64,000 nucleotides of DNA from a virus, in the IMG/VR virus record IMGVR_UViG_3300020109_000011, positions 1 to 64,000 of that record; one strand, given 5' to 3'. Under the pieces are notes generated by a model. That model ran no database searches, had not been told where the DNA came from, and saw only the letters and a list, made by a program, of their open reading frames with translations. Both the position numbers and the translations under genes were made by a program. Positions 868 to 64,000 of this stretch are shown piece after piece. Numbering within the stretch: the first letter of the stretch is position 1; every line of letters starts with the position of its first letter.

Positions 868-924
868 GACGTGTCAACCGGTAGCGTGTGAGCGACCACG
901 CCGCGCTACCGCTGGAGGCCCTGA

Positions 925-1854
925 GTGGCAACGACCGACGGCCTGAAGCTGCTGATCCCCGAGCTCACGGACACCGCCGATGGGCCGGACGCGATCAGCG
1001 ACCTGGCCAACGGTGTCGAGGACTACGTCTACGACCGGCAGCTGCCCACCGGAGTCACCCGGTACCCGGTGCACCACTGGGGCTCGGGGACCAGCTTCCC
1101 GACGGTCGGCCAGGGCGTGAAGGTCGGGGACACCTACACGCACACCGGCATCGGCGCGATGTTCCGCTTCACCGGAGTGGGCACCATCCAGTGGGCCCAG
1201 GTGTCGGTTCCCGAGGTCTCCGGCCTCGCGCCGCTGAACGCGATCTCGTCCAACTACGGCTCGCTGCTGCCCTCGGGCTTCCTGGTCCGGCGGACGGACT
1301 GGCAGTTCGAGATGGCCTGGGACCCGCTGGCGGGCACCTCGGGGAAGTGGGTCTTCAAGAAGCACTACGGCGAGAAGAACCCGACCGGGATCACGAACAC
1401 CGGGCCGAGTGCGCACTGGGCGGTCCAGCCGTGCGCCGTGCCCTTCGGATCCGGCCTCCAGCGCTTCCACGGCTTCACCTTCCGGCGGGGCAACAACGGC
1501 CTGGTCAGCTGGGACAACACGAACAAGCAGTTCACGGTCAACGTCGAGGGCATCTACGCGATCACGCTGTTCTCCTTCATCGACCTGCCCGGCTACCGCA
1601 GCCAGTTCCAGCGGCTGGTCACCAGCACGGCCGCCATCACCAGCGCGGGCGATGTCGAGGACCACCGTCTCTACGCTCCGGGCACCTCGTTCCCCGGCTG
1701 CAACACCGCGCGGCACCCGCTGTCCGTCACGACCTACCTGAAGGAGGCGTCCACGGTCTACGGGGACATGGACTGCTACGGGACCGGGGTGGTCGCCAAC
1801 GGGACCAACGTCAACTGGGACGTCTACTTCGGCTTTCAGCTGATCGGGAGTTGA
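925..1854 (+). CDS. Minor tail / tail-fibre-like protein
   Basis: N-term LxxPELTDTADGPDAISDLANGVE typical of actinophage fibre N-termini; beta-rich C1q-like C-term (FTVNVEGIYAITL); GGAGG upstream. Confidence 0.55.
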   Translation: MATTDGLKLLIPELTDTADGPDAISDLANGVEDYVYDRQLPTGVTRYPVHHWGSGTSFPTVGQGVKVGDTYTHTGIGAMFRFTGVGTIQWAQVSVPEVSGLAPLNAISSNYGSLLPSGFLVRRTDWQFEMAWDPLAGTSGKWVFKKHYGEKNPTGITNTGPSAHWAVQPCAVPFGSGLQRFHGFTFRRGNNGLVSWDNTNKQFTVNVEGIYAITLFSFIDLPGYRSQFQRLVTSTAAITSAGDVEDHRLYAPGTSFPGCNTARHPLSVTTYLKEASTVYGDMDCYGTGVVANGTNVNWDVYFGFQLIGS

Positions 1855-1862
1855 TCAACACC

Positions 1863-2129
1863 ATGCCCCCTGCATCGCGCCAGCCCGAGCCGGACACCGC
1901 TCCCCGGGTCGGGGAGTACGTCCGGTTCCACGGGGACCCGGAGCGCCTGAGCGAGGCCCTGGCCACCTACAACGGCCGAGAGGCCAAGGTCGAGGGCATC
2001 AACGGCCAGAACATCACTCTCCGGCCGCACCGCTACGGGCCCGAGGACCCCAGGCCCCAGCTGGTCGAGGCCACACTGGACCAGGTCTACGTGGAGCAGT
2101 GGCAGCTGGACGCCAGGAACGGAGCCTGA
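1863..2129 (+). CDS. Hypothetical small beta-barrel (SH3/KOW-like) protein
   Basis: ATG at 1863 in ORF 888..2129; PRVGEYVRF..GREAKVEGI. Confidence 0.6.
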   Translation: MPPASRQPEPDTAPRVGEYVRFHGDPERLSEALATYNGREAKVEGINGQNITLRPHRYGPEDPRPQLVEATLDQVYVEQWQLDARNGA

Positions 2130-2131
2130 CC

Positions 2132-2332
2132 GTGTCAACCACCCCCGGGATGCCGGACGAGCCGGAAGACGCTCTGCACGAGCTCTCCGATGACGACTAC
2201 TTCGACGCCCTGGCCGAGATGCCCGAGGTGCTGGACGCCTCCGGCAAGCCGGTGACCGGGCTGTTCGATGACGTGACCGACGCCCGGGAGTCCAAGGCCC
2301 GGGCGAAGGCCGCCGGGGAGGGCAAGGCGTGA
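2132..2332 (+). CDS. Small acidic hypothetical protein
   Basis: Start GTG 2132 (or ATG 2150); GTGA overlap with the endolysin start. Confidence 0.55.
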   Translation: MSTTPGMPDEPEDALHELSDDDYFDALAEMPEVLDASGKPVTGLFDDVTDARESKARAKAAGEGKA

Positions 2333-3566: not shown

Positions 3567-3572
3567 TACCCC

Positions 3573-4290: not shown

Positions 4291-5904
4291 GTGTCAACCG
4301 CCGTGGCCGGAGACCTCTCCCTGGAGCAGCAGGTCGCGCTGCTCCCGCTGGAGACCCAGGAGCAGGTGCTGGCGGACCTGGACCTGAACACCCTGCCCTG
4401 GGACTGGAAGTGGACCGCCCGGCCCTCGCAAGTGCTCCCGCTGGAGCCCGTGGGCGAGGGCGCGGACTGGTCGGCGGCTCTGTTCAACGGCGGCCGAGGC
4501 ACCGGGAAGACCCGCTCGGGCAACGAGTTCGTGCGCGAGCTCGATGAGCGCTGGCACACGCTGGGCCGCGACCCCGGACAGCAGCTGCGCATCTGCCTGC
4601 TGGGCCGCACCGCCGGGGACGTGCGGGACACGATCCTCAACGGGCCCTCGGGCCTGCTGAACATCTACCCGCCGAGCCAGCAGGACGAGGTGGAGTGGAT
4701 CTCCAGCCAGCGCCGTGTCAACCTGCCCGGCGGCGGCTTCGCGCTGTGCTTCTCGGCCGAGGAGCCCGACCAGCTGCGTGGCCCGGCCTTCCACTTCGGC
4801 TGGGCCGACGAGCTCGCGGCATACAAGCAGGTCAAGGGCCAGGGCGAGCTCGATGCCTGGACCAACATGCGGATCGCCACCCGTCTCGGGCTGGTCCCGC
4901 AGGTCATCGCCACCACCACGCCGAAGCGCGTGAAGATCCTCCGGGAGTTCATCGCCGAGATCCTGGCGAACCCCGGCAAGATGCTGATGCGCACCGGGAA
5001 GACCACGGACAACGTCCACCTGTCCGAGAACTACCTGGACACCCTCTACGCGCTCTACGGGAACACCACGCTGGGCTCCCAGGAGCTCGATGGCGAGATG
5101 CTGGATGCCGTCCAGGGCGCCACGGCCGACGTGCAGACCATCGAGGACAACCGGGTCACGAAGCTGCCCGTGCTGCCGCCCTCGGTGAAGTGGGCCCGCA
5201 TCGTGGCCGTGGACCCCTCGGTGGCCGAGAAGCCCGGCGACGAGTGCGGCATCGTCGTGATCTACGTGCCGCTGACCCAGCCGATCCTCAACCGGCACGC
5301 CTACATCGTGGACGACCTCTCGCTGCGCGGGTCCCCGACGCTGTGGGGCGACCGGGTGGTCAAGGCGGCGATGAAGCACAAGGCCGTGGTCGTGGTCGAG
5401 AACAACCAGGGCGGGGCCCTGGTCAAGCGGGTGATCAAGGAGCGGGCCGCCGCGCACGACATCGCGCCGCCGAAGATCCGCGAGGTCTGGTCCTCCAAGG
5501 CCAAGGCCGTGCGCGCCGAGCCCATCGGAGCGGCCTACCAGCGCGGCCGGATCCACCACCTGAACACCCTGGCCGAGCTCGAAGACCAGGTGTCCAGCTG
5601 GACCCCGGAGGACAAGGGCTACTCCCCCGACCGCCTGGACGCGCTGGTGCACGGCCTGAGCGCGGTGCTGTTCCCGGAGGGCATGGTCGGCGGCGGCGTG
5701 CCGGGGTCGGCCACCACGCACTCGCCGGTCGGGATCGCGCTGCCACGCACGCGCGCCACCACCGAGCGCCGGGCCCAGGGCCTGCGCATCGACACCTCCG
5801 GCGGCCGGTCCGGTGTCAACCGGCGCGCCTCCGGTCTGGGCGTGCCCGGCGGCTACCGTCCGGGTCTGGTGGTCCCGCGCCGTGTCCTGGGAGGGAAGAA
5901 GTGA
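4291..5904 (+). CDS. terL: Terminase large subunit
   Basis: Walker A GGRGTGKT, LRGP..WADE Walker B, ATTTP motif, RNase-H-like nuclease VAVDPS ... SPDRLDALV. Confidence 0.95.
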   Translation: MSTAVAGDLSLEQQVALLPLETQEQVLADLDLNTLPWDWKWTARPSQVLPLEPVGEGADWSAALFNGGRGTGKTRSGNEFVRELDERWHTLGRDPGQQLRICLLGRTAGDVRDTILNGPSGLLNIYPPSQQDEVEWISSQRRVNLPGGGFALCFSAEEPDQLRGPAFHFGWADELAAYKQVKGQGELDAWTNMRIATRLGLVPQVIATTTPKRVKILREFIAEILANPGKMLMRTGKTTDNVHLSENYLDTLYALYGNTTLGSQELDGEMLDAVQGATADVQTIEDNRVTKLPVLPPSVKWARIVAVDPSVAEKPGDECGIVVIYVPLTQPILNRHAYIVDDLSLRGSPTLWGDRVVKAAMKHKAVVVVENNQGGALVKRVIKERAAAHDIAPPKIREVWSSKAKAVRAEPIGAAYQRGRIHHLNTLAELEDQVSSWTPEDKGYSPDRLDALVHGLSAVLFPEGMVGGGVPGSATTHSPVGIALPRTRATTERRAQGLRIDTSGGRSGVNRRASGLGVPGGYRPGLVVPRRVLGGKK

Positions 5905-6704: not shown

Positions 6705-6726
6705 GGTTGACAGAACCTGGCATAGT
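6705..6726 (+). promoter_or_regulatory. Leaderless promoter GTTGACA-N8-CATAGT-N7-GTG
   Basis: Matches the promoter family geometry. Confidence 0.6.
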
Positions 6727-7667: not shown

Positions 7668-7858
7668 TGGCCGGGCGCCTGATGAAGTTCCGGTGCAGCG
7701 CGTGCGGGACCGAGCACCACATCCCGCGCGCGCTGGCTGTGGACTGCCCCGTCGTGGGCTGTCAGGCGCCCGTCGGCCAGAAGTGCCTGGACCTGAGATC
7801 GAGCGACGGCAAGACCCGGTTGACACCCCACCCCGAGCGAGAGGCACTGCTGCCGTGA
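7667..7858 (+). CDS. Small zinc-finger protein
   Basis: CSAC, CPVVGC, C..PHPER. Confidence 0.7.
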   Translation: MAGRLMKFRCSACGTEHHIPRALAVDCPVVGCQAPVGQKCLDLRSSDGKTRLTPHPEREALLP

Positions 7859-8567: not shown

Positions 8568-8588
8568 GTGTCAACCGGCCGCTACTCT
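8568..8588 (+). promoter_or_regulatory. Putative leaderless promoter of the head operon (GTGTCAACC-N6-TACTCT-N6-ATG)
   Basis: TAnnnT hexamer 6 nt before the portal ATG; 9-mer motif upstream. Confidence 0.55.
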
Positions 8589-10244: not shown

Positions 10245-13200
10245 GCGAGTCCAAGCACTACACGACCGCGATCCTCGCCGCCGTCCCCGCGACGGACGAC
10301 CCGGTCCACGAGGTCGTCGCCGAGGACGCCCACGTCACCCTCCAGTTCCTGGGCGAGGCGGCCGAGCTCTCCGAGGAGCAGGTCGAGGAGATCACCACCG
10401 CGCTGGAGATGCTGGCCAGCGTCGTCTACCCGTTCGAGGCCGACATCTCGGGCACCGCCGAGCTCGGGCCCGACAAGGCGCAGGTGCTGCTGGTCCAGAG
10501 CGCGCTGCTGACCAAGGTCCGCGAGACGCTGGGCATGGTCGAGGCCGTGTCAACCGCCGTGGCGGCCAGCGACCAGTTCCCGAACTGGATCCCGCACCTG
10601 ACGCTGGCCTACGAGGGCGAGATGCCCGACGTGAGCAGCTACAAGACGGTGACCATCGGCTCGCTGGAGCTCTGGCTGGCCGAGAAGAAGACGGTCTTCC
10701 CACTGGCCCAGCCGAAGGACGCGGTCACCGCCGCCGGGCTCAAGGTCTTCGAGGAGCACCTGCACCCGCGCGGTGCGGACGGCCGCTTCATCGAGAAGTT
10801 CGGCGTGATCAAGTTCCTGACCGCCAAGGGCTGGCAGTACGGCAAGGTCGAGGGGATCTACGAGGAGAACGGCCAGGTCAAGCTGACCGTCAGCCCCTCC
10901 AACCTGTCCGGGAAGACCCACGGCGAGTCCGTCGTGCTGACCCCGAAGCAGGTCTACCGGGCGCCGAAGACCAAGGCGCACCTGCTGGTCAACCAGTCCG
11001 GCGTGACCAAGATCGGTGGCCAGGGCGGCTCCAACCCCGGCGGCCTCTACTCGATGCCCGCCCAGGTCCCGCACCCCGACGGCAGCGTGGAGCTCACGGG
11101 CGAGCAGGACCAGTTCTACGTCAAGACGCCGAAGTCCAAGGCCATCGGTCAGAACGAGGCGCTGACCAACGCGCTGTACGAGCACGCCGGGGTGCCGGTC
11201 CCCGAGGTGGACCTGGCCAGCGACGGGAAGCTCTACAGCAAGATCGTCAAGGGCCAGCAGGACATGGCCCAGCAGCTGTCGAACGCGGACTGGAAGGACC
11301 AGGTCCGGCGGAACTTCGTCGTGGACGCCTGGCTGGCCAACCGCGACGTGTTCGGCATGACCTACGACAACATCCTGACCGACGAGCACGGCGTGCCGTG
11401 GCGCATCGACAACGGCGGCGGGCTGCTCTACCGGGCGCAGGGCGCGAAGAAGACCGACTTCGGCTCGCAGGTCACCGAGCTCGACGCCTTCCGGCAGGGC
11501 AAGAAGGCCGCGATCTTCGGCCCCGAGATGTCGAAGGCCCAGGAGATCGACGGGGCCGAGCGCGTGCTGGCCATCTCCCCGGCCGACATCGATGACCTGG
11601 TCAAGGCCCACGGCCTGCCCAAGTCGCTGGCCGACACCCTGAAGGCCCGGCGGCTCTACATCGCCGACTACTACGGCCTGACGCTGCCGGAGTCCAAGGC
11701 CCCGGCCGAGGCCGAGGGCCCGACCAGCGCGCCGCTGGTGGACGCCCCCGACATCGCCGAGAACGAGGGCCACAACCGCAGTTGGTTCAAGGTCAACCTG
11801 TCCCAGCTGGGCTTCGTGGCGAGCACGGGGGACCTGCTGGAGCTTCCGGACGGGAGCACGAAGCTGCTGGGCGTCGGGGACGACGGCCAGGCGCTGTCGA
11901 TGGTGGGCGCCCAGGCCCAGCTGCTGGGGCTCATGCAGACCATCGGGCCCGAGGCCCAGGTCTACCTGAAGAAGCAGATCGACCCCCAGCAGTCCCGCCC
12001 CGACCACGGGTCGAAGCTGAAGGGCAGCGACCTCACCTCGCAGCGCTGGAAGCGCGGTGACCAGGTCATCGACTCCGACGGCGTGCCGTGGAAGGTGCTG
12101 GGCTGGAACGAGGACACGGGCGCGATGCTCGTGCAGTTCGCCAGTAAGGCCCCGGTGCTGCTGGACACCCACGGCAAGGACAAGGGCGAGACCTTCACCG
12201 TCCAGCGCTGGGACCCGCCTGCGGTTGACACGGCCGAGCCGGTGCAGACCGAGCAGCAGGCCATCGACCAGGTCCAGACCGCCGTCTGGATCAACCCGCC
12301 GCCGGTCAAGATCGAGACGCTGACCGAGCCCGACGACGAGCTCACCACCTACACGCAGAGCGAGAGCGGCACCTACGTCCCGAAGGTCGTCCCGGCCGAG
12401 ATCGTGGACGAGTTCCTGGCGCCGCTCCCCGCCGAGAGCACGAAGACCGGCCAGGCCGCGCAGGCCGAGCAGGCCATCAAGGCCGACCTCAACCAGCCGC
12501 TGCCCACCGGAAGCGGCGCTCCGGCGCCCGCGAAGACCAGCGCGCCCGGCGGCGCGAAGGTCATGGTCATCGGCGACGGCACCGAGGCTGCCACCGGGGA
12601 TTCCGTCACGTCCAAGAAGGACGGCAAGACCTACGTCTTCGTGAAGCCGAAGGGGCAGTACGCGGTCGTCACCGACCCCAACGGCGAGGACCCGACCAAG
12701 CAGCTGCTGAAGCTGGCCAGCACGATGACCCAGCCGGGCAAGGCCCCGGCCGCCGACGCCACCGAGGTCGAGGCGCCGAAGACGGCCACGGGCGAGGTCC
12801 CGCAGCTGGGCATGACCGCGCTGGCCAAGGACGGATGGGCGGGCACCATCACGCTCATCTCGCCGGACGGCAAGTTCGTCTTCATCACCGACGCCAACGG
12901 GAAGCGGAAGCGGAAGTCCACCGGCACCGTCTCCATCACCGGGGGCACCCCGGCGGTGGTTGACACCCCGGCCCCGGCCACGGCTCCGGCCGCTCCGGCC
13001 CCGCTGAAGCCCTACGGCCCGGCCCCGGCCAACGTCCCGGCGGCCAAGGCCGCGCTGGGGGACATCTCCTTCGACCTGGACGACCCGGCCGACCTGGACG
13101 CCGGGGACATGGTGGTCGTGGGCTACGCGGACGGCACCATCGGCCTGGAGCCCTACACCGGCCAGCCGCTGGACAGCCTGCTGAAGAACACCACCGGCAA

Positions 13201-43004: not shown

Positions 43005-43010
43005 GGGAGA

Positions 43011-43461: not shown

Positions 43462-43467
43462 GGCACC

Positions 43468-49200: not shown

Positions 49201-49206
49201 GGGAGA

Positions 49207-49238
49207 AGTATGCAGGGCAGTGTCAACATTGTCAACAC
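49207..49238 (-). promoter_or_regulatory. Leaderless promoter TTGACA-ATG-TTGACA-N8-CATACT-N6-ATG
   Basis: Near-identical to 43011-43043. Confidence 0.8.
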
Positions 49239-50514: not shown

Positions 50515-50543
50515 GGGGGCCTCCTCAGGCAGCGGTTGACACA

Positions 50544-50825: not shown

Positions 50826-51745
50826 CAGGCCAGCCCGTTCCGGCGCCGCTCGGCCGTCTGCTTGTCCAGGTAGGCCTGCCGGTTGCGGGCCTCGCTGCCG
50901 TGCTTGCCGTCGCGGCGCTCCTGCTCGTAGCGCGCCTGGTCGGACGCGGCGCGCTCCTGGTTGTGCCGGTTCTTCCGGCCCTTGCGGGCCTTCCGGCGCT
51001 CGCGGCGGCTGCCCGGCCGGTTCATCGGCGCCGGGGAGACCACCAGGGCCCGCTGGGCGGCCTCGAACTCCTCCTCCATCTCCCGGCGGCGCAGGTCGGC
51101 CTCCTCGGCGTCCAGGTACTCGTCGCGCTCGTCGTCGGTCAGGGCGCTCCACCAGGCCTCGAACTCCTCGTCCGTGGCCCACGGGTCGGCGGCCTCGGGA
51201 CGGGTGGTGGGCGAGACCGGGTCCGGGTGGCTGACCCCGCTGCCGCTGCCCCAGGCGTTGGCGTCCCAGTCGAACTCCGACGCCCGGCGGCTGCCCCCGG
51301 TGCCGAAGCCGATGGCCTGCTGGCCGGGACCCGGCTGGCGGCTGCCGCCGAGCACGCCGCCGCTGGCGTAGGTCTTCTTGACCGGCTCGGGGCGCGGGGT
51401 CTTCGAGTAGGGCGCGTAGGGCTGCATCTTGGCCAGCGAGCCCCACAGGGCGTAGTAGGCGTCCCGGCGGCTGCCGTGCTTGGGGACGGCGGACCGGCGG
51501 ATGGCCTCGTCCTTGAAGTGGCTGGTGATCGTGGCGGCCATGATCAGCTTGGTCATCTGCTCGGCGAACTCGGCCTTGGAGACCTTCGCCCGGAACAGGT
51601 AGTCCGCGCCCGGCTTCTCGTAGACGGCGACGCCGGGGAAGTTGCGCTCCAGGTCTTCGCGCAGGCGTGCCCGCAGGTGCAGGACGTTGGAGTCCTTGCG
51701 GTCCACGACGAAGGAGATGAAGCCGTGCTCGGTGATGATCCACAT
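50825..51745 (-). CDS. Conserved phage hypothetical protein
   Basis: MWIITEHGFISFV..LRAR..ADYLFRA..FK domain; promoter at 51794-51825. Confidence 0.75.
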   Translation of the reverse strand: MWIITEHGFISFVVDRKDSNVLHLRARLREDLERNFPGVAVYEKPGADYLFRAKVSKAEFAEQMTKLIMAATITSHFKDEAIRRSAVPKHGSRRDAYYALWGSLAKMQPYAPYSKTPRPEPVKKTYASGGVLGGSRQPGPGQQAIGFGTGGSRRASEFDWDANAWGSGSGVSHPDPVSPTTRPEAADPWATDEEFEAWWSALTDDERDEYLDAEEADLRRREMEEEFEAAQRALVVSPAPMNRPGSRRERRKARKGRKNRHNQERAASDQARYEQERRDGKHGSEARNRQAYLDKQTAERRRNGLA

Positions 51746-52812: not shown

Positions 52813-52843
52813 GGGACCAGTATCGCAGACCTTGTCAACACTG

Positions 52844-53350
52844 TCAACTAATGGCTGGCTCGGGTTCCTCGTCCGGATCGCGCGGTGAGCCGTTGACCTG
52901 CGGCATTGCCTGGGTGTCGGTGCGCGGTGCGCGCCACGGGATGCGCAGCGGCGGGGGTGTCGGGATGTCCCCCGGACGCACGCCGCGCTGGATCAGGGTC
53001 TGGACGACATCGTGGTCCCAGCCCATGTGCTCGCGGATCACGCGCTGGAGGGCGTCCCGGTCGTCCAGGGTCTCGTCCAGCTGGCGCCGCAGGCTCTCGA
53101 TCTCCTGGTCGGCGAAGGCCCGGCCCTCGGTGGCCTGGGCGATCATCTGCTCGCGGCGCTTCCGCCGCTCCTCGACCTCGCGGTTGACACGCCGCTCGCC
53201 GAGGGACTGGAACCACCGCGCCACCTTGCCGAAGGGGCCCTTCAGGTTCGTGGCCGCGTTCGTGCCCACGGTCAGGATCACGACGACGACCAGGAACCAC
53301 TGGACGACGACGTTGTCCTTGACCAGGTCTAGCAGCGCGGTGGGGTCCAT
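52844..53350 (-). CDS. Single-TM plus coiled-coil protein (lysis-cassette accessory-like)
   Basis: N-term TM, heptads, PTPPP end; follows holin-like genes. Confidence 0.7.
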   Translation of the reverse strand: MDPTALLDLVKDNVVVQWFLVVVVILTVGTNAATNLKGPFGKVARWFQSLGERRVNREVEERRKRREQMIAQATEGRAFADQEIESLRRQLDETLDDRDALQRVIREHMGWDHDVVQTLIQRGVRPGDIPTPPPLRIPWRAPRTDTQAMPQVNGSPRDPDEEPEPAIS

Positions 53351-54483: not shown

Positions 54484-54539
54484 CGTGTCAACCGGTCAGG
54501 CCCGGGGCGCCGGTTGACCCAGCGCCCCGAGCTCGGACC

Positions 54540-56074: not shown

Positions 56075-58030
56075 CTACTCCCCGCCGAACAGCGCGGCCA
56101 GCTTCTCCCCGTCGTTGACCAGGGACTCCAGCACCTCGGCGTTCTCGCCCTGGCGGGTCAGCTGGCGCTCCTCGATGGTCCCGGCCGTCACGTAGTCGAT
56201 GACCTTGACGTGCTGGTGACGCTCCGAGCCGATCCGGTGCACTCGGTCCAGGCCCTGCTTCCACAGGATCGGGCTCCACGGCCGCTGGACGCGCATCAGC
56301 GTGCTGGCAGCCGTCAGCGTGGTCCCGGTGCCCCCGGCGGCGTAGGTGTAGGCGATCAGCCGCTTCTTCCCGGCCTGGAAGTCCTGAATGGCGATGTCGC
56401 ACAGCTGGTGCGTGCGGTCGCCCGCGATCACGTCCAGCTGCTCGTGGAGCTCGGGGTGGCGCTTCAGCAACTCGGCCTCCCACAGCCGCAGCAGCCGCCG
56501 GGACTCGAAGGCCAGCGCGATCTGCTCGCCGTCGAACTCGCCCGAGACCAAGTCCTCGATGACCTGGTCGATCTTCCCGCTGGGCATCCGCAGCAGCATC
56601 TTCACGGGCACGTCGTCCTCGGTGCTCGCGCTGACCGCGTCGGGGTCCTCGGGGTAGCCGGTGGCGCTGGCCAGCATGGTGAGGCGCCCGGCCGCGATCA
56701 TGGCGTTCTGGGCCACGATCACGCCCTCGGCGACCTTCAGGACCATCTCGTCGCGCATCTGGAGGTAGGCGGTCGCCTGCTCCTTCGGCATGAAGCACTC
56801 GCGCCGGAGCTCGCCGCCCATCAGCAGCGGCGGCAGGTCCAGCACCTCGGCCTTCAGGCGGCGCCGGGTGATCCCGCTGAAGACCTGCTGGAACTCCTCG
56901 ACCCGGTCGGCCCGGAAGCCGTTGGTCTCGAAGAAGCCCGCCATGTTGTAGCCGGACTCGGCGTAGTAGCCGATCCAGGTGGTCTTCACCGGCCAGGCCT
57001 CGGCGTCCGCGTAGTGCAGGATCGTCCAGGCCTGCTCGACCTTCCGGCTGACCGGCGTGCCGGTCAGGCCCCAGCGCAGGGCGTTCGGCGCCGACCGGAC
57101 CAGGCCCCACAGCGCCAGGGTGTTCTGGCTGGTGTTGTTCATCGCCCGGTGGACCTCGTCGGCGACGATGAGGCCCCAGTCGATGGCGTTGAGCTCCTTC
57201 TCGTGGGCCTGGCACTTGGCCTCGGTGACCGTGTTCTCCTCGGACTGGTTCGGGCCGCCGCAGGCCTCGCACTTCTTCAGCGCGTGCCCGGGCTGGGCCT
57301 TGAACCGGGTGTGGGTCTTCAGCGACTCCCAGCCGATGATGCCGATCTGCGTCTCACCAGCGGCGATGCGCTCGATGACCTTGCGGCGCTGGGTCGGGGT
57401 GCCACGGATGAGCTCGGCGGTGGCCTCGGGCATGAAGTCGGCGAGGTCGTCCAGCCAGGCGGTCTTCAGGGTCTTCTGCGGCGCCACGATCAGCACCGGC
57501 TTGCCGGTTGACACGGGGATCCCGAGCTCGCGCATCCCGGCGATGATCGAGATGGTCTTGCCGGTGCCGGTCTCGTTCAGCAGCAGCCGGGCGGGCACCG
57601 GAGCGGTCCCACCGCCGTAGGCCAGCCACGCGGCGTCGTCCACCTGGTGCGGGTAGAGCTCGGCGTCGGGCTCCTTGCGCGCGGCGGGGTCCACCTTGGC
57701 CGAGAGCTCGCGCATGGCCTTCCAGTGCGCGGTCTGCTCGTTCACCCAGGCCATGAGCTCGGGGTGCGGCAGGATCCGCAGCCCGGTCTCCTTGGCCATC
57801 ACCCCGAGGCTCAGGACGGCCGGGTAGGCCTTCGGCAGCGTCCAGACCTCGTCGGCCTTCGAGTAGAGCGCGCCGGGGATGAGCTCCAGCCGCTTCATGT
57901 ACGTCGGGGGCACGTAGACCCCCATCCGGCCCGCGTAGCGGCCGTCAGCGATCTCCCAGGGGTAGATGCCCGGGGAGGCCCCGGCCAGCTTCGCGGCCAT
58001 CTTCAGCGGGGCGGTCAGGGTCGCGGTCAT
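56075..58030 (-). CDS. SNF2-family DNA helicase
   Basis: ETGTGKT, ADEVH, LTGTP, GTGTTLT, QGLDRVHRIG. Confidence 0.9.
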   Translation of the reverse strand: MTATLTAPLKMAAKLAGASPGIYPWEIADGRYAGRMGVYVPPTYMKRLELIPGALYSKADEVWTLPKAYPAVLSLGVMAKETGLRILPHPELMAWVNEQTAHWKAMRELSAKVDPAARKEPDAELYPHQVDDAAWLAYGGGTAPVPARLLLNETGTGKTISIIAGMRELGIPVSTGKPVLIVAPQKTLKTAWLDDLADFMPEATAELIRGTPTQRRKVIERIAAGETQIGIIGWESLKTHTRFKAQPGHALKKCEACGGPNQSEENTVTEAKCQAHEKELNAIDWGLIVADEVHRAMNNTSQNTLALWGLVRSAPNALRWGLTGTPVSRKVEQAWTILHYADAEAWPVKTTWIGYYAESGYNMAGFFETNGFRADRVEEFQQVFSGITRRRLKAEVLDLPPLLMGGELRRECFMPKEQATAYLQMRDEMVLKVAEGVIVAQNAMIAAGRLTMLASATGYPEDPDAVSASTEDDVPVKMLLRMPSGKIDQVIEDLVSGEFDGEQIALAFESRRLLRLWEAELLKRHPELHEQLDVIAGDRTHQLCDIAIQDFQAGKKRLIAYTYAAGGTGTTLTAASTLMRVQRPWSPILWKQGLDRVHRIGSERHQHVKVIDYVTAGTIEERQLTRQGENAEVLESLVNDGEKLAALFGGE

Positions 58031-58308: not shown

Positions 58309-58793
58309 TCGGGCCTCCAGCGGGTGCTCGCCCACAGCAGGGCGTGCCTCAGGGCCTGGACGGCATGGCCCTCGCCGCCCTTGCCCACGTTGTTGGGCCG
58401 GTCCCGGTTCTCCCGGTACCGGCGGATCTTCTCGGGGGTGGACCACTCGCGCTCCGACGGCTTCTGGACGTAGAACCGGCCGGGCTCGCCGTCCATCAGC
58501 CACCGGCAGAAGCCGATGACCTCGACGGCCTCGGGCTGCCAGGTGCGCACGCCCTCGCGCGGCCACCAGCCCTCGATGACGATGCCGCTGATCCGCTCCG
58601 AGGGGAGCCGAGCGTTCGTGCACTGCATGGCGAAGTCCATGAAGCGCAGGTGGTTGGGCTGCTCGCCCCAGTCGGCGATCTCCAGCCCGACGTTGGCCAG
58701 CTGGGTCGTGTCAACCACCGGCCGGAACAGCACCCAGCCGGTCACACCGCCTGGGTCCACGGCCAGCCACAGCCCGGGCCCGCGCGCGATCAC
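58305..58793 (-). CDS. RuvC-like Holliday junction resolvase
   Basis: LAVDPGGVTGW, IVIEG, HAVQALRH. Confidence 0.75.
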   Translation of the reverse strand: MIARGPGLWLAVDPGGVTGWVLFRPVVDTTQLANVGLEIADWGEQPNHLRFMDFAMQCTNARLPSERISGIVIEGWWPREGVRTWQPEAVEVIGFCRWLMDGEPGRFYVQKPSEREWSTPEKIRRYRENRDRPNNVGKGGEGHAVQALRHALLWASTRWRPE

Positions 58794-60598
58794 TTCGCCT
58801 CGGCCCAGTTCGCGCCCATGCCGGGCTCGGCCTGCACGTCCACCAGCCAGCCGGTCTGCTCGTTGACCACCTGGTCCATGACCTCCTTGATCTCCTGCAT
58901 GGCGTCCTCGGCCTCGGCCTTCGGGCAGCTGAACAGCACCTCGTCGTGCACCGGCAGCAGCATGTGCGGGCTGAAGCCCGCCGCGTCCAGCCCGACCAGG
59001 GCCTTCTTCAGCGCGATGGCGGCGCTGCCCTGGGTCACGTAGTTGGGCAGCACGCGGCGCTGGGATGGGTCGGCGACCTGGAACCGACGGCCGAAGGGGC
59101 TGTCCAGGTAGTGCACGAGGCCCCGGGGCGTCTGCTCGGTCTGCACCAGGTCCATCCCGACCTCGCGCAGGCTCGGGTAGGACTGCTCCAGCTTCTTCCA
59201 GGTCGGGACCAGCTGGTAGACACCGACCCCGGCGGTGGCCGCCGCCGTCTCGATCCCGCCGCCGAACAGCTTGGCGTAGACGGTGGACTTCAGCAGGGTC
59301 CGGCGGGCGTCCTTCTTCACGAAGTCCGGCTCGCCGTAGACCACCTTGCCGAGCTCCACGAAGAAGTCGCCGCCCGTGGCGTCGGCCTGCTTCAGGGCCG
59401 CGATCATCGCGGTGTCCTTGTTCCAGCTGGCCCACATCCGGAGCTCGATCTGGCCGTAGTCGGCCGAGATGATGACCTCGTCGGGGTTGCGCGGGATGAC
59501 GGCCGTGCGCACGGTCGGGTCGTTGCTGGGCAGCTGCTGGAGCGGCGGGTTCTCCACCGACATGCGGCCGGTGCGCGCCTCGAAGGGCTTGATCCCGGGG
59601 TGCAGCACGGCGCCCTCCTCGGGCACCACGCCGTTCTCGAAGTCGCCCCCGGCGCCCCGCAGCATGGCCTCCAGGTAGCTGGTCCGGGTCTTGTAGAGCC
59701 CCCGGAACTCCAGCACGTCCTGGGCGGCCGGGTGCTCGATGTGCTCCAGCACCTCGGCGTCCAGCTTGACCTTGCCCTTCTCGGTCTTGGCCGGGAGCGG
59801 GATGCCCGCCTCGTGCAGCACGAGCTCCAGCTGGCCGTTCTGGTGCGGGTTGGTCACGCCGATGCTGGCCAGCCGCGCGCGGACCTCGTTCTCCTGCTCC
59901 AGGTGCTCGTGGATCTTGTCCATCAGGTAGGGGCCGTCCACCGGCAGGCCGCGCCAGGACATCTCCCCGGTGATCCGGAGGCTGGCGATCTCCAGGGCGT
60001 GGTCGGCCGCCCACTTCTTCCGGCGATCGGCCCACTGCTCCCACAGGGCTGCGGTGACGCAGGTGTCCACCACGCCGTAGAGGGGGTAGGGCTTCCAGCC
60101 CAGCGGCACGTCCGCCCAGGTCCAGCCCGCGTTCTTCATGCCCTCGTGCAGCACGCGCTCGCCCGCGCCCGCCCACGGGCCGAACTCGCGCATGGCCAGC
60201 GTCTTCAGGCCTCGGGGCTGCTCGGCGAAGCCGCCCAGCGCCGCCCAGGTGAAGGTGTCCTCGACCACCGACCAGTCCACGGTGATGCCCTTGGACCGCA
60301 GCGAGAGGATGTCGTACCCGGCGTTGTGGAAGACGATCTTCACGCGCGCCCGGGAGCACCAGTCCAGCGCGCCCTGGACCATCGCGGGCCAGCCCTCGAA
60401 GGGGATGGCCCAGCCGCCTGCCACGTCGCCGAACTGGATCAGCCGGACCTTGAAGGCCGGGGAGTACCAGTCCAGGCCGGTGTTCTCCGTGTCAACCGCG
60501 ACCATCCGGCGCCCGGGCAGGGTCAGCCACTCCCAGAAGGCGGCCATCTGGTCGGGGGAGGTGAGCACCCGGATCTTCAGGTTGGGCACGGCGGACAT
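58790..60598 (-). CDS. DNA polymerase family A with 3'-5' exonuclease
   Basis: AVDTENTGL, FHNAGYD, RTGRMS..PPLQQLP, ADYGQIELR, K..YAKLFG, NYVTQGSAA, VHDE. Confidence 0.95.
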   Translation of the reverse strand: MSAVPNLKIRVLTSPDQMAAFWEWLTLPGRRMVAVDTENTGLDWYSPAFKVRLIQFGDVAGGWAIPFEGWPAMVQGALDWCSRARVKIVFHNAGYDILSLRSKGITVDWSVVEDTFTWAALGGFAEQPRGLKTLAMREFGPWAGAGERVLHEGMKNAGWTWADVPLGWKPYPLYGVVDTCVTAALWEQWADRRKKWAADHALEIASLRITGEMSWRGLPVDGPYLMDKIHEHLEQENEVRARLASIGVTNPHQNGQLELVLHEAGIPLPAKTEKGKVKLDAEVLEHIEHPAAQDVLEFRGLYKTRTSYLEAMLRGAGGDFENGVVPEEGAVLHPGIKPFEARTGRMSVENPPLQQLPSNDPTVRTAVIPRNPDEVIISADYGQIELRMWASWNKDTAMIAALKQADATGGDFFVELGKVVYGEPDFVKKDARRTLLKSTVYAKLFGGGIETAAATAGVGVYQLVPTWKKLEQSYPSLREVGMDLVQTEQTPRGLVHYLDSPFGRRFQVADPSQRRVLPNYVTQGSAAIALKKALVGLDAAGFSPHMLLPVHDEVLFSCPKAEAEDAMQEIKEVMDQVVNEQTGWLVDVQAEPGMGANWAEAK

Positions 60599-61257: not shown

Positions 61258-62142
61258 TCAGTTCTCCTGCTTCTCGGGGGTGGGGGTGGGCTGCTCGCCC
61301 TGGTTGACAGGCGCGCTGGCCTGGTCCTGCTGCTGGGAGTGCGGCACGCCCGTCTGCGCGGGCTGGGAGATGCCACGGCCCTTGAACACCATCTTGATCA
61401 ACTTCTCGAAGGTGGTGTTCTTCGCGCGGATCTCGTCCTCCGTCTGACCCACGACCTGGGGCAGCTGGATGATCGGCGGGATCCGGCCGCCGACCCGCTC
61501 CTTGGCCTCCTTGCCGTTCATGCGGCGGGTCTGGAGGTAGCGGGTCTCGGTGCCGTCCGCGTCGGGCTCGACGTACAGCCAGGCGCACACGTCGAACAGG
61601 TACGGGATCACGTCCCGCAGCTGACCCTGGAGGTAGGGCCGCATGATGCCCTGGTTGTCCTCCTTGGTCATCGACGTGAAGACGACGGCCTCCAGGGGCT
61701 TGGTCGGGTGCTCGGTGAGGTCCCGGAGGTCCCGGCAGAAGCCGCCGACCTCCCGGAGCGCGGCGCCCCAGTCCTGGATCTTCATCTGGTCGCGCCCGGC
61801 GACCTTCTCGACGTACCGGTACTGGAGCTCGGAGATCGAGTCCACCGTGGCCGAGCGGAAGGGGTGCTCGCCCTGCTTCAGCCAGTCCAGGCCGTTCAGG
61901 GCGTCCTGCCAGGTCCGGACGATGATGACGGCGGTGTCCCACTCGGGCTCGCCGTTCTTGTCGATCTTCGGGGGCTCGGGGGGCGGGTTCGCGGGGTCCC
62001 AGATCTTCACCTTCACCGGCAGGAACCGGTGGGCGGCCTCGCAGTCGAACAGGACCCTGGGCCACGGGGTGGAGGACCCCAGCAGCGACTTCCCCGCGCC
62101 CGACGGCCCATGCACCAGCATGGACAGTGCAGGCACCTTCAT
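61258..62142 (-). CDS. Sak4-like AAA ATPase / recombinase
   Basis: VHGPSGAGKS, FDCE, TVDSISEL, QDWG, AKER. Confidence 0.85.
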   Translation of the reverse strand: MKVPALSMLVHGPSGAGKSLLGSSTPWPRVLFDCEAAHRFLPVKVKIWDPANPPPEPPKIDKNGEPEWDTAVIIVRTWQDALNGLDWLKQGEHPFRSATVDSISELQYRYVEKVAGRDQMKIQDWGAALREVGGFCRDLRDLTEHPTKPLEAVVFTSMTKEDNQGIMRPYLQGQLRDVIPYLFDVCAWLYVEPDADGTETRYLQTRRMNGKEAKERVGGRIPPIIQLPQVVGQTEDEIRAKNTTFEKLIKMVFKGRGISQPAQTGVPHSQQQDQASAPVNQGEQPTPTPEKQEN

Positions 62143-62284
62143 GTGACTCCCTCCCAAGCCGCTGACCAGCCGCTTCGCACAGAGGGATCCACCGGAATCT
62201 CAGATGCTCAGGGTCGCTCAGATGGCTTAGATGTTGTTGTGGGTGTTGACAGAACCTACCACTCTCGGGTGACAGGCACCAGCC

Positions 62285-62473
62285 TCAGGACCGGTGTCGC
62301 CAGCCCGGGAGCAGCAGCCACCAGAGGGTGCGCCCCTCCAGCTTCCGCATCCGGCGCTCGCGCCTGCGGAGGATCCGGTTGTCGTTGCCGTGCAGGCCGA
62401 TGGCGAAGGCGATGTTGGACAGCACGGTGCCGATGGCGACCCCGGACAGCAGCCAGGCGTACCAGGTCATCAC
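62285..62473 (-). CDS. Small membrane protein
   Basis: N-terminal TM, Arg-rich. Confidence 0.55.
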   Translation of the reverse strand: MMTWYAWLLSGVAIGTVLSNIAFAIGLHGNDNRILRRRERRMRKLEGRTLWWLLLPGWRHRS

Positions 62474-62814
62474 GGGCCCCAGACCGAGAAGGGCTGGTTG
62501 GGCGGGTAGACGGCCACGCCCGAGGTGGTGGCGACGTGGACGTTGCCCTTCGCGGTGAGCTCGGTGCTGCGCAGGTAGCCCCGGTGCCCGGGGGTCTGCA
62601 CGATCCGGCCGTGCTCGGCGGTTGACAGGGCGTCGGCCGCCACCGTCAGCACCTGCTCGCCGGAGCGCCGGGCGCGCGGGAAGGCGTAGACCCTGCCCTC
62701 GATGAGGTAGCTGGCGGCCATCCGGCAGCCGTAGCAGCTGACGCCGGGGTCGTCCGGGTGGTGAGCGGCGTGGAGCTCGCGGGCCTTGCGCCCGACCGGG
62801 CCGATGGCGGCCAT
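62470..62814 (-). CDS. Hypothetical protein
   Basis: Coupled starts and stops; HH..CYGC. Confidence 0.55.
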   Translation of the reverse strand: MAAIGPVGRKARELHAAHHPDDPGVSCYGCRMAASYLIEGRVYAFPRARRSGEQVLTVAADALSTAEHGRIVQTPGHRGYLRSTELTAKGNVHVATTSGVAVYPPNQPFSVWGP

Positions 62815-63002
62815 CAGCCCTCCTCGGCCGGGTTGGCGTGGTTCGGGCACAGGATCGGCACGTCCGGACGGTGCGGGTTGTACCGCCAGCCGTCCTCCAT
62901 CAGCTGGGCCCAGTTGCTGGCCAGCGCCTCGTACCAGTCCAGGGTCCAGTTGGGGCACCCGGACTCGTCGTCGCAGGTGATGATCGGGAAGGTGGCCTTC
63001 AT
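62814..63002 (-). CDS. Small Zn-finger protein
   Basis: ITCDDESGC..DGW..LCPNH. Confidence 0.65.
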   Translation of the reverse strand: MKATFPIITCDDESGCPNWTLDWYEALASNWAQLMEDGWRYNPHRPDVPILCPNHANPAEEG

Positions 63003-64000
63003 CAGGCGGGCCCGCCCGAGATCTCCGAGTCGGCGCCCTGGTCGGCCATGTACCGGGCCCACGGGTCGCCCTCGGTGTAGAGGTCGTCCAGCATCGCCTC
63101 GGCGGACTGGGGGGTGTGCTGCATCAGCCCGCACGGCAGCTTGAACGGGCAGGTGGCGCAGTGCCAGCCCGGGGTGAAGTAGGCGACCCGCCGGGGGTCA
63201 GCGCCAGCGTCCAGCGCGAACTTGGTCCGGGCCAGGTCGGTGACCGCGCCCTCCAGGCGGACGTTGTAGGCCTCCTGCTCGGCGTCGTTGATCTCGATGG
63301 TCACCCGCTTGTAGAACGGCGGCTTCGCGGTCGGCGTGCGCAGCACCTTGCGCAGCAGCGTGAAGCTGACCCCGGCGGTCCACTGGTCGGCGGGGGCCTG
63401 CTGCTGCTCCAGCATCCGGTAGAGCCGGGGCTGCGGGCTCATCTCCAGCGACAGCATCGCGGGCTCGCCGAAGTTGCCCATCGTCTTGAAGTCGTCCACG
63501 TAGACGGCGCCGTCGGACTTCCGGCGGCGGCGGCGGTCCAGCTTGCCCCGGACCAGCACGGTGACCTCGGCGTCCCCGTCGGGCGTGTCAACCACCAGGG
63601 TCAGGAAGTGGGACAGCTTGGTCTCGACCCCGACGATGTCCCAGTAGGCGTCCTCGCCCTCGGCCTCCAGCCACTCCATGTAGCCCTCCAGCATCCGGAA
63701 GCCCAGCTTCGACTCCTTGTCCAGGTCCAGGACGAAGGGGGAGTTGCTGGCCTCGGCCACGGCGAACTCGTGGGCCATCAGCTGCTTCCAGGCGATGGCG
63801 GGGTCGGGGACGGTGCCGTCGTAGAAGGCCTCCAGCGCGCTGTGGATCCGGGAGCCGAACGGCAGCGCGCCCGTCGGGGGCTCCTCGATCTTGCGCAGGC
63901 GCCGGTAGTCCCCGAGCCACCAGCGGCGGCGGCACTGGTGGAACTGGCCGAGGGAGGAGAAGGACGCCACCGTGTTGTCAGGAACGTGGGCGGTGGTCGC
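63002..64000 (-). CDS. Cas4/RecB-like PD-(D/E)XK exonuclease, start probably beyond the window
   Basis: SFSSL..CRRRW, FGSRIHSALE, GKLD..VDDFKT, QPRLY, CATCPFKLPC. Confidence 0.9.
   Translation of the reverse strand, partial: ATTAHVPDNTVASFSSLGQFHQCRRRWWLGDYRRLRKIEEPPTGALPFGSRIHSALEAFYDGTVPDPAIAWKQLMAHEFAVAEASNSPFVLDLDKESKLGFRMLEGYMEWLEAEGEDAYWDIVGVETKLSHFLTLVVDTPDGDAEVTVLVRGKLDRRRRRKSDGAVYVDDFKTMGNFGEPAMLSLEMSPQPRLYRMLEQQQAPADQWTAGVSFTLLRKVLRTPTAKPPFYKRVTIEINDAEQEAYNVRLEGAVTDLARTKFALDAGADPRRVAYFTPGWHCATCPFKLPCGLMQHTPQSAEAMLDDLYTEGDPWARYMADQGADSEISGGPA

Follow-up and report, generated by a model that had tools for sequence, protein, structure and literature searches.

A 9-letter DNA word at regular intervals along the genomes of a group of uncultured high-GC phages

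The window analysed here is a stretch of 64,000 nucleotides that corresponds to bases 1-64000 of a single 86,483-bp phage contig (IMG/VR record IMGVR_UViG_3300020109_000011) with 71.3% GC. Gene calling based on GC3 gave 126 genes covering 92% of the sequence, among which are the terminase, portal, capsid and tape-measure genes, a gene for a protein of 3009 aa, an SNF2 helicase, a DUF3987 helicase, an AAA_24 protein, a family A DNA polymerase and a PD-(D/E)XK nuclease. The preliminary description of the window had listed 41 exact copies of the 9-mer GTGTCAACC, and we found all 41 at those coordinates, 23 forward and 18 reverse, whereas 100 dinucleotide-preserving shuffles gave a mean of 0.23 copies and a maximum of 1. 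The observation is therefore confirmed. The whole contig carries 55 copies, 29 on the plus and 26 on the minus strand, against about 0.4 expected. Of these, 38 lie inside gene bodies in four reading frames (13 V-S-T, 7 x-V-N, 15 V-D-T and 3 R-L-T), 4 supply the TGA stop of a gene and 13 are intergenic.

In the first half of the window, exact copies lie at 871..879 (+), intergenic and 4 nt after the stop of gene 595-867; at 2132..2140 (+), intergenic; at 4291..4299 (+), on the first GTG of the longest terminase ORF; at 4715..4723 (+), inside the terminase (x-V-N frame); at 5813..5821 (+), also inside the terminase; at 7818..7826 (-), in gene 7667-7858 (R-L-T); and at 8568..8576 (+), which is intergenic by our gene call and is the first GTG of the longest portal ORF. 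The gene of 3009 aa contains seven copies, at 10547..10555 (+, V-S-T), 12223..12231 (-, V-D-T), 12958..12966 (-, V-D-T), 15691..15699 (-, V-D-T), 16458..16466 (+, x-V-N), 17494..17502 (-, V-D-T) and 18626..18634 (+, V-S-T), so the lattice is not one site per gene. Further copies are found at 20700..20708 (+) in gene 20268-21656 (V-S-T), at 22090..22098 (+) and 23248..23256 (+) in gene 21991-24366 (both V-S-T), and at 24802..24810 (-) in gene 24404-26440 (V-D-T). The copy at 26443..26451 (-) is intergenic, just after the stop at 26440, that at 29117..29125 (-) is intergenic, just upstream of the ribosome-binding site of the capsid gene 29144-30304, and that at 30316..30324 (-) is intergenic. 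The start-codon role that the preliminary description had given to some copies was only partly checked: it fits the longest ORF for 4291, but 2132 and 49523 were not verified as starts.

In the second half, the TGA of the copy at 32043..32051 (-) is the stop of gene 31632-32048. The copy at 32747..32755 (-) is intergenic, before the tape-measure gene, and that at 34718..34726 (+) lies within the tape-measure gene (V-S-T). Copies follow at 36031..36039 (-) in gene 35819-38038 (V-D-T) and at 38158..38166 (+, V-S-T) and 38356..38364 (+) in gene 38035-39129, the latter marking the shortest gap in the genome (198 bp). We also find copies at 41231..41239 (+) in gene 41032-41556, at 43701..43709 (+) in the minus-strand gene 43493-43735 (antisense, V-D-T), at 44668..44676 (-) in gene 44470-46068, at 46084..46092 (+) in gene 46068-46361, at 46815..46823 (-) in gene 46563-47567, and at 47720..47728 (+), intergenic. 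The copy at 49515..49523 (-) is intergenic and abuts the start of gene 49317-49514, that at 50534..50542 (-) is intergenic, just after the stop of gene 50544-50825, that at 53182..53190 (-) is in gene 52844-53350, and that at 54485..54493 (+) is intergenic. The last four are at 57506..57514 (-) in the SNF2 helicase gene, 58708..58716 (+) in gene 58305-58793, 60489..60497 (+) in the family A DNA polymerase gene and 63585..63593 (+) in the PD-(D/E)XK nuclease gene.

The six near-variants named beforehand are all present. Those at 6705..6713 (-), 61302..61310 (-) and 62620..62628 (-) read GGTTGACAG; the first sits in a gap of the lattice and the other two in its largest gap (3096 bp). The variant at 37662..37670 (+) reads CTGTCAACC (GGTTGACAG on the minus strand) and also lies in a gap, that at 40566..40574 (+) reads ATGTCAACC (GGTTGACAT on the minus strand) and lies in the 2875-bp gap, and the sixth is at 52081. 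More generally, weaker spellings of the form GGTTGACA[A/G/T] sit in the gaps (P = 0.005, 0.08, 0.02, 0.007 and 0.10 in five genomes). Across the 41 copies of the window, the word extends by one partly specified base on each side (C27/G10/T4/A0 before it and G30/A10/T1/C0 after it), and no conservation reaches further out.

The core of the word, GTTGACA, also forms the tandem boxes of the leaderless promoters of the phage. We identified such cassettes at 43005..43041 (-), with tandem boxes TTGACAnnGTTGACA, a CATACT -10 and the start ATGACGCAGAC, and at 43462..43497 (-), 49201..49236 (-) and 52813..52848 (-). These promoters use TTGACA at a 17-bp spacing. All 95 TTGACA hexamers in the genome are preceded by G: 55 lie in the word, 11 in near-variants, and most of the rest in tandem promoter boxes, where the proximal box lies inside the 17-bp spacer, an operator-like position. 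However, promoter boxes read [T/A]GTTGACA whereas lattice sites read GGTTGACA, and promoter loci avoid lattice sites in only 1 of 5 genomes. Hence, it is unproven that one protein reads both. The dispersed sites have no -10-like element at 16-19 bp and are thus not promoters.

To assess whether selection acts on the DNA, we used the codon-preserving controls that had been suggested in advance as a critical comparison. The 13 copies outside the shuffled gene bodies stayed fixed in every shuffle. Synonymous shuffling gave 14.9 copies in all, i.e., about 2 re-formed inside genes, and codon permutation gave 13.2, i.e., about 0.2, against the 38 observed. The claim that rare codons are used also holds: TCA is 25 of 1336 Ser codons and GTT is 27 of 2048 Val codons. 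V-D-T is spelled GTTGACACn in 15 of 20 cases and GTGGACACC in 5 of 20, and V-S-T is spelled GTGTCAACC in 13 of 25 cases. Together with the four reading frames and the intergenic copies, these controls show that selection acts on the DNA and not on a peptide.

The spacing was likewise compared with random placement, under which a lattice would have been refuted. Over the genome the mean spacing is 1579 bp, with a CV of 0.46 and a largest gap of 3096 bp, whereas uniform placement gives a CV of about 0.98 and a largest gap of about 7070 bp; none of 20,000 simulations was as even. In four large genomes, including this one, the CV is 0.46-0.63 (P no higher than 0.0006 against uniform placement). 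Orientation is random with respect to transcription (20 sense and 22 antisense copies), and the order of orientations is random as well (24 runs against 28.4 +/- 3.7 expected), with no switch along the genome. Plus and minus copies repel each other (circular-shift test P = 0.0007, 0.009, 0.015 and 0.015 in four genomes). The CVs within each strand are 0.85 and 0.76, as given by random labelling of one joint lattice. The two orientations thus behave as if interchangeable, so the signal is probably read on double-stranded DNA, as we expect of a reader whose effect is symmetrical.

We then examined related phages for turnover of the sites, another comparison that had been named at the outset. The same word is the commonest or second-commonest 9-mer in five further related metagenomic phage lineages, which makes six independent lineages, and it occurs in independent assemblies from several samples. 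In three word-bearing relatives (G001, G002 and G003), 15 of 30, 14 of 31 and 10 of 20 alignable sites are identical, whereas control 9-mers are conserved at 16%, 14.5% and 11%. Lost sites are replaced by new ones elsewhere. The sites at 4291 and 4715 are kept in G001, G002 and G003, whereas that at 5813 is not kept in G001 or G002. A 5.4-kb relative (L051) spells the word CGGTTGACC in 6 of 10 cases, which hints at a reader evolving with the phage, not a fixed host sigma factor. Sister phages with 62-68% identical capsid proteins lack the word and have no substitute word. The word was not enriched in any of 401 sampled Actinomycetota genomes (at most 36 copies per genome, about 15 per Mb or fewer, against 636 per Mb in the phage), nor in any of the 406 bacterial genomes sampled overall.

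The search for a protein that reads the word did not identify one. We scanned 60 of the 126 called proteins against Pfam and 30 against PHROGs (the two sets overlap), and none gave a repressor-type HTH, sigma factor, integrase, methyltransferase or nickase. About half of the proteins of the phage have no assignable function. Of the binders proposed in the preliminary description, two phage proteins were compared across relatives, and neither tracks the word: the SAP protein (54540-55151) has no detectable counterpart in G003, and the wHTH candidate (40740-41039) also has counterparts in three word-less relatives (G006, G007 and G009; none was found in a fourth, G008). The best phyletic candidate, which is a lead only, is a 306-aa protein (g61) encoded at 50825..51745 (-). 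It was found in every word-bearing relative where that region is available and in none of the four word-less ones. It has a folded N-domain, a disordered middle and a basic coiled-coil C-terminus, but no recognisable DNA-binding fold and no known fold (Foldseek E-values of 0.16 or worse, best VIA Z of 4.3), and its N-domain resembles widespread phage proteins of unknown function. For the protein g62, the zinc-finger part is missing from the G003 and G010 counterparts.

These results suggest, as our best but still tentative reading, which we hold to be somewhat less likely than not, that YGGTTGACACS (GTGTCAACC plus one partly specified base on each side) is a cis-acting site on double-stranded DNA that a whole clade of high-GC phages keeps at roughly one per 1.5-2 kb, so that no stretch of the genome lies more than about 1.5 kb from a site. 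It would most likely be the high-affinity landing site of a sequence-specific DNA-binding protein, probably encoded by the clade itself, that reads a -35-like/WhiA-like core (TTGACAC). The same protein, or a related one, would read the GTTGACA boxes in the spacers of the leaderless promoters. From these sites, it would act over about a kilobase in either direction, by spreading, bridging or blocking, and would thereby silence, coat or mark the whole phage genome. Such a genome-wide array of sites would be stoperator-like, but orientation-free and evenly spaced. The analysis itself establishes the lattice, the selection at the DNA level, the independence of orientation, the conservation with turnover in related phages, the restriction to one clade and the core shared with the promoter boxes; that a protein binds, who encodes it and what the binding achieves are inferences. 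Binding, nicking and base modification are all untested, and nicking or base modification at the word is not excluded. The earlier interpretation of a protein-binding lattice is thus supported in part: its claims on DNA-level selection, orientation, regularity and persistence hold, but its variant of decoy sites for a host factor fits poorly, because even spacing points to a role in cis along the DNA. There are precedents for an asymmetric site read at over 20 places by a monomeric two-domain repressor (the stoperators, PMC9283540) and for a sigma-region-4-like HTH that reads GACAC and TTGACA (PMC10243135). On the other hand, a tightly bound protein every 1.5 kb would also impede the replication and transcription of the phage itself, and because the host is unknown, a host-encoded reader is not excluded.

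Two alternatives seem to us unlikely, to a similar degree. The word could be the target of a phage enzyme that nicks one strand or modifies a base, with the regular spacing serving packaging, ejection, repair or protection. Nick motifs are short asymmetric words of similar length, such as the 9-bp TACTRTGMC that occurs 14 times in phage tf (PMC3517423), a nick or a modified base could act regardless of orientation, and the word contains a GTYRAC core, as pointed out in the preliminary description. Yet all sites of tf lie on one strand, as do the nicks of T5 and phiKMV, against 29 plus and 26 minus here, and no nickase, HNH or methyltransferase domain turned up in the 60 proteins scanned against Pfam; read ends and modifications were not examined, the data being assembled contigs. 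Alternatively, the sites could be read by a host protein, either region 4 of the housekeeping sigma factor in RNA polymerase or WhiA with a WhiB-like partner, which would dock the host transcription machinery along the phage DNA or titrate it away from the host. The word contains the -35 consensus TTGACA overlapping the WhiA motif GACAC, the WhiA C-terminal HTH and sigma region 4 read these words in the same way (PMC10243135), the promoters of the phage use TTGACA, and gene 64418-65044 has a weak WhiB-like match (phrog_12112, E 5.6e-4). However, the dispersed sites are not promoters, a decoy role does not need even spacing, and sister phages lack the lattice. Moreover, the invariant GG before the hexamer and the C after it go beyond what we found described for sigma region 4 (TTGACA) or WhiA (GACAC), and the CGGTTGACC spelling in L051 fits neither protein. 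One related contig is labelled Longimicrobium sp. at NCBI. WhiB-like proteins are described as restricted to Actinobacteria and their phages.

A true stoperator system, in which the immunity repressor of a temperate phage stops transcription elongation during lysogeny, is more doubtful still. Many copies of an asymmetric word whose core recurs at the promoters recall L5 (PMC9283540), and the word-less relative G006 is classed as a provirus by IMG/VR, but stoperators are oriented with transcription, lose function when reversed and lie in short intergenic spaces, unlike the sites described here. No integrase or repressor was found in the 60 proteins scanned against Pfam, and no prophage relative was found in the genome contigs searched. 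A strand-specific signal, either a Chi-like site that tames a host or phage exonuclease or a start site for a primase on the lagging-strand template, is improbable. The length scale of 1-3 kb matches Okazaki fragments and Chi spacing, the word contains GTGTC, one of the T7 primase recognition sites, and the phage encodes the DUF3987 helicase, PD-(D/E)XK nuclease and AAA_24 protein mentioned above. Such a signal should nevertheless be evenly spaced within each orientation and indifferent to the other, which is the opposite of what we observe, and the word is not enriched in the sampled Actinomycetota genomes. Nothing was found in favour of a word without function of its own, as a by-product of peptide selection, mutation bias, a miniature mobile element or an assembly artefact; this is refuted by the reading frames and intergenic copies, the lack of conserved flanks beyond one base, the regular spacing, the independent assemblies and the retention of sites.

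Among known systems, DNA uptake sequences (USS of Pasteurellaceae and DUS of Neisseriaceae; PMC1939737) are 9-12-mers in both orientations, written through genes. They are more evenly spaced than chance (Karlin and colleagues, 1996). They are words of a bacterial chromosome read by a competence machine, whereas this word belongs to a phage clade. The nick-associated motifs of T5, phiKMV-like and tf/LUZ24-like phages are also short asymmetric words repeated along the genome with an unknown purpose (PMC3517423), but they number 4-14 per genome and lie on one strand, whereas here there are 42-58 sites per complete genome and both strands are used equally. The stoperators of Cluster A mycobacteriophages (L5, TipsytheTRex) are present at more than 20 places across the genome, have a core that is the complement of the -35 hexamer and recurs at the promoters of the phage, and are read, in Cluster A, by a single protein as a monomer (PMC9283540). 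The L5 consensus contains TGTCAA. Stoperators are 13 bp long, whereas the word here is 9-11 bp, with 38 of 55 copies inside genes, random orientation and regular spacing. Finally, the 17-bp repeats of Cluster O mycobacteriophages (Corndog) are spread in more than 30 copies through an actinobacteriophage genome of about 70 kb, about a third of them in coding regions, and are presumed to be protein-binding sites, their function being unknown (PMC4351075). Those repeats are palindromic (TGTTCGGNNNCCGAACA) and denser towards one genome end, whereas the word described here is asymmetric and evenly spread.

The window is the first 64 kb of a single contig of 86,483 bp with 71.3% GC, which, judging by its genes, belongs to a tailed phage. 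It encodes a terminase, a portal, a 3009-aa head-associated protein, a capsid protein, a tape measure, an amidase, an SNF2 helicase, a family A DNA polymerase, an AAA_24 protein, a PD-(D/E)XK nuclease, a DUF3987 helicase, and an SSB. The run that contains it completely is a lake-water metagenome, and no RNA run was listed as containing it. Related sequences at about 90–97% identity occur in four further runs, but their small shares led us to draw no conclusion about habitat. Of about 2,500 differences in these sequences, we examined 40, none of which falls in a site, which is too little to count as evidence. The nearest cultured relatives are distant. Megablast of positions 1–20000 against phage records gave no match, and the best tblastn identity of the terminase was about 44%, to phages of Microbacterium, Gordonia, and an uncultured actinomycete.

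The observation made in the preliminary description holds and is strengthened by our analysis. All 41 copies of GTGTCAACC in the window lie exactly at the positions where they had been placed, 23 forward and 18 reverse, whereas dinucleotide shuffles give 0.23. The whole genome carries 55 copies, and the word is its commonest 9-mer. One further base is partly specified on each side (C27/G10/T4/A0 before, G30/A10/T1/C0 after), and the flanks are random beyond that. Hence, this is a word of 9–11 bp and not part of a longer repeat. It lacks the dyad symmetry of the Cluster O 17-bp repeats, since only 3 of 5 base pairs of the 11-mer are symmetric when the consensus is counted by eye.

To find out at what level selection acts, we called 126 genes by third-position GC (92% coding) and placed the copies against them. 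Of the 55 copies, 38 lie inside gene bodies in four reading frames (13 V-S-T, 7 x-V-N, 15 V-D-T, 3 R-L-T), 4 supply a TGA stop, and 13 are intergenic, i.e., 24% of the copies in the 8% of the genome that is non-coding. A codon-preserving shuffle had been proposed in advance as the control that could undo the observation, and it did not. In these controls, 13 copies lay outside the shuffled gene bodies; synonymous shuffling within genes gave 14.9 copies in all, so about 2 re-formed inside genes, and codon permutation gave about 0.2, against the 38 observed. The codons used are rare, as had been claimed: TCA is 25 of 1,336 Ser codons and GTT is 27 of 2,048 Val codons. The word even appears to shape the proteins, because V-S-T is spelled with it in 13 of 25 cases and V-D-T in 15 of 20, so that the DNA signal seems to dictate some of the amino-acid sequence and not only codon choice. 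Selection is therefore on the DNA and, because sense and antisense copies are equally common, it is not on the RNA either.

The gaps between copies have a mean of 1,579 bp and a CV of 0.46; only two are under 700 bp and none exceeds 3,096 bp. Random spacing, which had been named beforehand as an outcome that would count against the proposal, was not seen, since none of 20,000 uniform simulations was as even. The lattice runs straight through single genes, with seven sites inside the 9-kb gene at 10241–19270 (+) that directly follows the portal gene and encodes the 3009-aa protein, so it does not reflect gene boundaries. Orientation is unrelated to transcription (20 sense, 22 antisense), and the order of orientations along the genome is random (24 runs against 28.4 +/- 3.7 expected). 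The key test was to slide the minus-strand copies round the genome relative to the plus-strand copies. The real joint arrangement is more even than nearly all shifts (P = 0.0007, 0.009, 0.015, and 0.015 in four genomes), and the CV within each strand (0.85 and 0.76 in this genome) is what random labelling of one joint lattice gives. Hence, plus and minus copies substitute for each other, as we would expect of a site read on duplex DNA with a symmetrical effect. The weaker spellings GGTTGACA[A/G/T], of which there are 11 in this genome, lie further from exact sites than random points do (P = 0.005, 0.08, 0.02, 0.007, and 0.10 in five genomes), which bears out the earlier remark that variants fill gaps.

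We recovered related phages by scanning IMG/VR for the promoter cassette of this phage and with a capsid profile. The word is present at similar density in five further independent lineages: G001 (89.6 kb, 46 copies), G002 (85.4 kb, 42 copies), G003 (82.7 kb, 58 copies), the records G005 and L043, which overlap at 99.9% (13 and 9 copies), and G010 (38.8 kb, 16 copies plus 12 other GGTTGACA). A further record, G004, is G003 at 99.2% identity. The reversed control word occurs 0 times in the five records in which it was counted. These genomes share only 70–75% nucleotide identity with the phage under study (G000), over 37–58% of its length for the three near-complete ones (G001–G003), and their spacing is again regular (CV 0.51–0.63). 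Site turnover in related phages, another of the checks proposed beforehand, is indeed observed. Of the G000 sites that can be aligned, 15 of 30, 14 of 31, and 10 of 20 are identical in G001, G002, and G003, whereas control 9-mers in the same alignments are fully conserved at 15.9%, 14.5%, and 11.2%. The remaining sites are replaced by unrelated sequence, with another site 31 to about 2,500 bp away. Individual sites are thus under purifying selection but do turn over, and the lattice persists.

Four sister records with a 62–68% identical capsid protein (G006–G009, two of them 87–88% complete) have no such word and no substitute. One of these, G006 (IMGVR_UViG_3300048917_000656), is classed as a provirus by IMG/VR, which is a hint about lifestyle. 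A 5.4-kb relative, L051 (IMGVR_UViG_3300046533_000354), has 10 CGGTTGAC[C/A] at 859–4751, six of them spelled CGGTTGACC and some only 60–100 bp apart; this may be a drifted spelling of the word with a different spacing habit. A terminase scan of the collection of viral contigs and a capsid-alignment scan of the collection of genome contigs found no relatives. The promoter-cassette pattern gave 61 single hits in the latter, mostly in gut and rumen MAGs by their titles, which we took for chance matches, and no prophage relative appeared.

The word is linked by its core to the promoters of the phage. All 95 TTGACA hexamers in the genome are preceded by G; 55 are in the word, 11 in the near-variants, and most of the rest in promoter cassettes upstream of 11 genes that begin with the identical ATGACGCAGAC (M-T-Q-T), placed 6–7 nt after a CATACT -10, and are thus leaderless (window 43004, 43461, 46361, 49200, 52812; genome 77222, 79076, 79515, 84434, 84944, 85837; all on the minus strand). 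Eight of the 11 cassettes carry tandem boxes TTGACAnnGTTGACA. The distal box lies 17 bp from the -10, and the proximal box lies inside the spacer, which is an operator-like position. In Cluster A stoperators, the dispersed site also serves as operator at the early promoter. Here, the core GTTGACA is shared, but promoter boxes read [T/A]GTTGACA whereas lattice sites read GGTTGACA, and promoter loci avoid lattice sites in only one of five genomes, so the comparison does not tell us which way the matter falls: a shared reader is plausible but not shown. The dispersed sites have TTGACA, but the positions where a -10 would lie, 16–19 bp downstream, show no A/T enrichment, and they are not promoters. 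The word fuses the -35 hexamer with the WhiA motif GACAC, and sigma region 4 and the WhiA C-terminal HTH read those words in the same way (PMC10243135). This tells us what kind of domain could read the core, but not which protein does.

We could not tell which protein reads the word. No repressor-type HTH, sigma factor, integrase, methyltransferase, or nickase appeared among the 60 of the 126 called proteins scanned against Pfam or the 30 scanned against PHROGs (the two sets overlap; 66 genes were not scanned against Pfam). A phyletic profile picked out five genes present in G001–G003 and G010 but absent from G006–G009: g22, g61, g62, g74, and g120. About 20 further clade-specific small genes were not assessed because G010 is only 26% complete. 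The gene g120 encodes an isochorismatase. The product of g74, a candidate on phyletic grounds, was rejected because it is a single-strand DNA-binding protein, as seen by alignment and by its match to phrog_378. The SSB-type protein (phrog_378) at 60685–61254 (-) sits between the polymerase and AAA_24 genes and has an Ala/Pro-rich linker and a conserved C-terminal [D/N]PW tip; the family has 49 members, all metagenomic. The protein g62 (51857–52489, -) has a HicA-like N-terminal part fused to two C2H2-type zinc fingers, but the fingers are missing from the G003 and G010 counterparts, and an atlas comparison gave only leads below 0.9. The protein g61 (50825–51745) has a confidently predicted N-domain (pLDDT 94), a disordered middle, and a basic coiled-coil tail. 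It matches no solved fold: Foldseek found nothing below E 0.16, the weak rows being mostly LAGLIDADG endonucleases, one WhiA chain, and the T4 MotA C-terminal domain. A wide VIA structural comparison of the full model matched only the C-terminal coiled coil, and the best Z for the N-domain was 4.3. None of this assigns a fold or shows that the fold is new. Its N-domain resembles widespread phage proteins of unknown function, and we treat g61 as a lead only. Binding of the clade-specific proteins, among them g61, g62, and those encoded at genome 64418–65044, g1 (3–206), and g2 (203–505), was not assayed, be it to GGTTGACAC, to GGTTGACAG, or to the promoter-type TGTTGACA.

Our best-supported reading, which is tentative and held at somewhat less than even confidence, is a genome-wide array of duplex-DNA sites for a sequence-specific protein. 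The earlier interpretation as an orientation-independent protein-binding lattice is supported in part: the lattice, the selection on DNA, and the interchangeability of orientations come from the analysis, whereas the protein that would bind the sites is an inference. The array would work like the stoperators of Cluster A in that an asymmetric word related to the promoter boxes is spread through the genome, with 55 copies of a non-palindromic 9–11-mer where stoperators number more than 20. It fails two of their defining features (PMC9283540), since copies do not follow the direction of transcription and most do not lie in short intergenic spaces, and it adds a spacing rule. Stoperators also belong to temperate phages with an immunity repressor; we found no integrase or repressor family among the proteins scanned, which with so many genes unscanned does not settle the point either way. 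The array resembles the Cluster O repeats in being dispersed and unexplained, but it is not palindromic (PMC4351075). Nicking or modification of the word is unlikely but not excluded. The nick motifs of T5, phiKMV-like, and tf phages all lie on one strand (PMC3517423), whereas here 29 copies are plus and 26 minus; single-strand breaks in virion DNA were not measured, as only assembled contigs of the runs were examined and read starts and nicks are not visible in these.

A host protein as reader is likewise unlikely but not excluded, and strand-specific signals are more doubtful still. Chi-like sites or primase start sites should be regular within each orientation and blind to the other, the opposite of what the sliding test shows, because the joint lattice is significantly more even than independently placed strands. 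Chi sites and DNA uptake sequences are also over-represented across the host chromosome. In 401 sampled Actinomycetota genomes (15 of them unpublished, for which only the counts were used), the word occurs at most 36 times per genome (about 15 per Mb or fewer), close to its reversed control, against 636 per Mb in the phage, and five other genomes gave 9–23 copies. So the word is not a genome-wide word of the sampled bacteria, although this leaves the comparison with the host undecided, because the host is unknown and the right genome may not have been sampled. A G002-like contig of 85,438 bp is labelled Longimicrobium sp. at NCBI, which is a hint about the host. A more speculative possibility, which we consider unlikely but which the data do not exclude, is that the lattice is a self-mark. 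Evenly spaced high-affinity sites would let a clade-specific multivalent phage protein nucleate on phage DNA only and spread or bridge between sites. Such a protein would combine a specific DNA-binding domain, a disordered linker, and a basic coiled coil, for which the architecture of g61 is a lead. The resulting coat or condensate would hold phage genomes apart from host DNA and shield them from translocating host nucleases and defence systems regardless of the direction of approach. This would be a sequence-encoded way for a phage without a nucleus-like shell to tell self from host.

Dispersed binding-site arrays in phage genomes are known from a few cultured actinobacteriophages (stoperators, Cluster O repeats). 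In those cases, the sites are oriented or palindromic, many of them lie in intergenic spaces, and we saw no report that they are regularly spaced. Those results of a literature search for the word itself that were inspected were unrelated studies, mostly of eukaryotes and animal viruses, and a search on stoperators and evenly spaced or overrepresented words in phage genomes found no description of this word or of a regular lattice in actinobacteriophages, although supplementary files, which might hold motif tables, were not covered. Here, a whole clade of uncultured phages pays a visible cost to keep an orientation-free word within about 1.5 kb of every base, using codons found in under 2% of cases and, it appears, bending protein sequence to fit the word. 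That spacing rule implies a process that acts in cis over a kilobase on duplex DNA, and no described phage function is known to need such a rule. Finding the reader protein would add a new kind of genome-wide control or protection, and would give a simple sequence signature for recognising this phage clade in metagenomes. Among the relatives that lack the word, the 107-kb sister phage G007 (IMGVR_UViG_3300043496_000175) has 12 clustered copies of GAGCAAAGGA (CV 2.8), probably a shared ribosome-binding or regulatory element, which suggests leadered genes, unlike the leaderless genes of the word-bearing clade.
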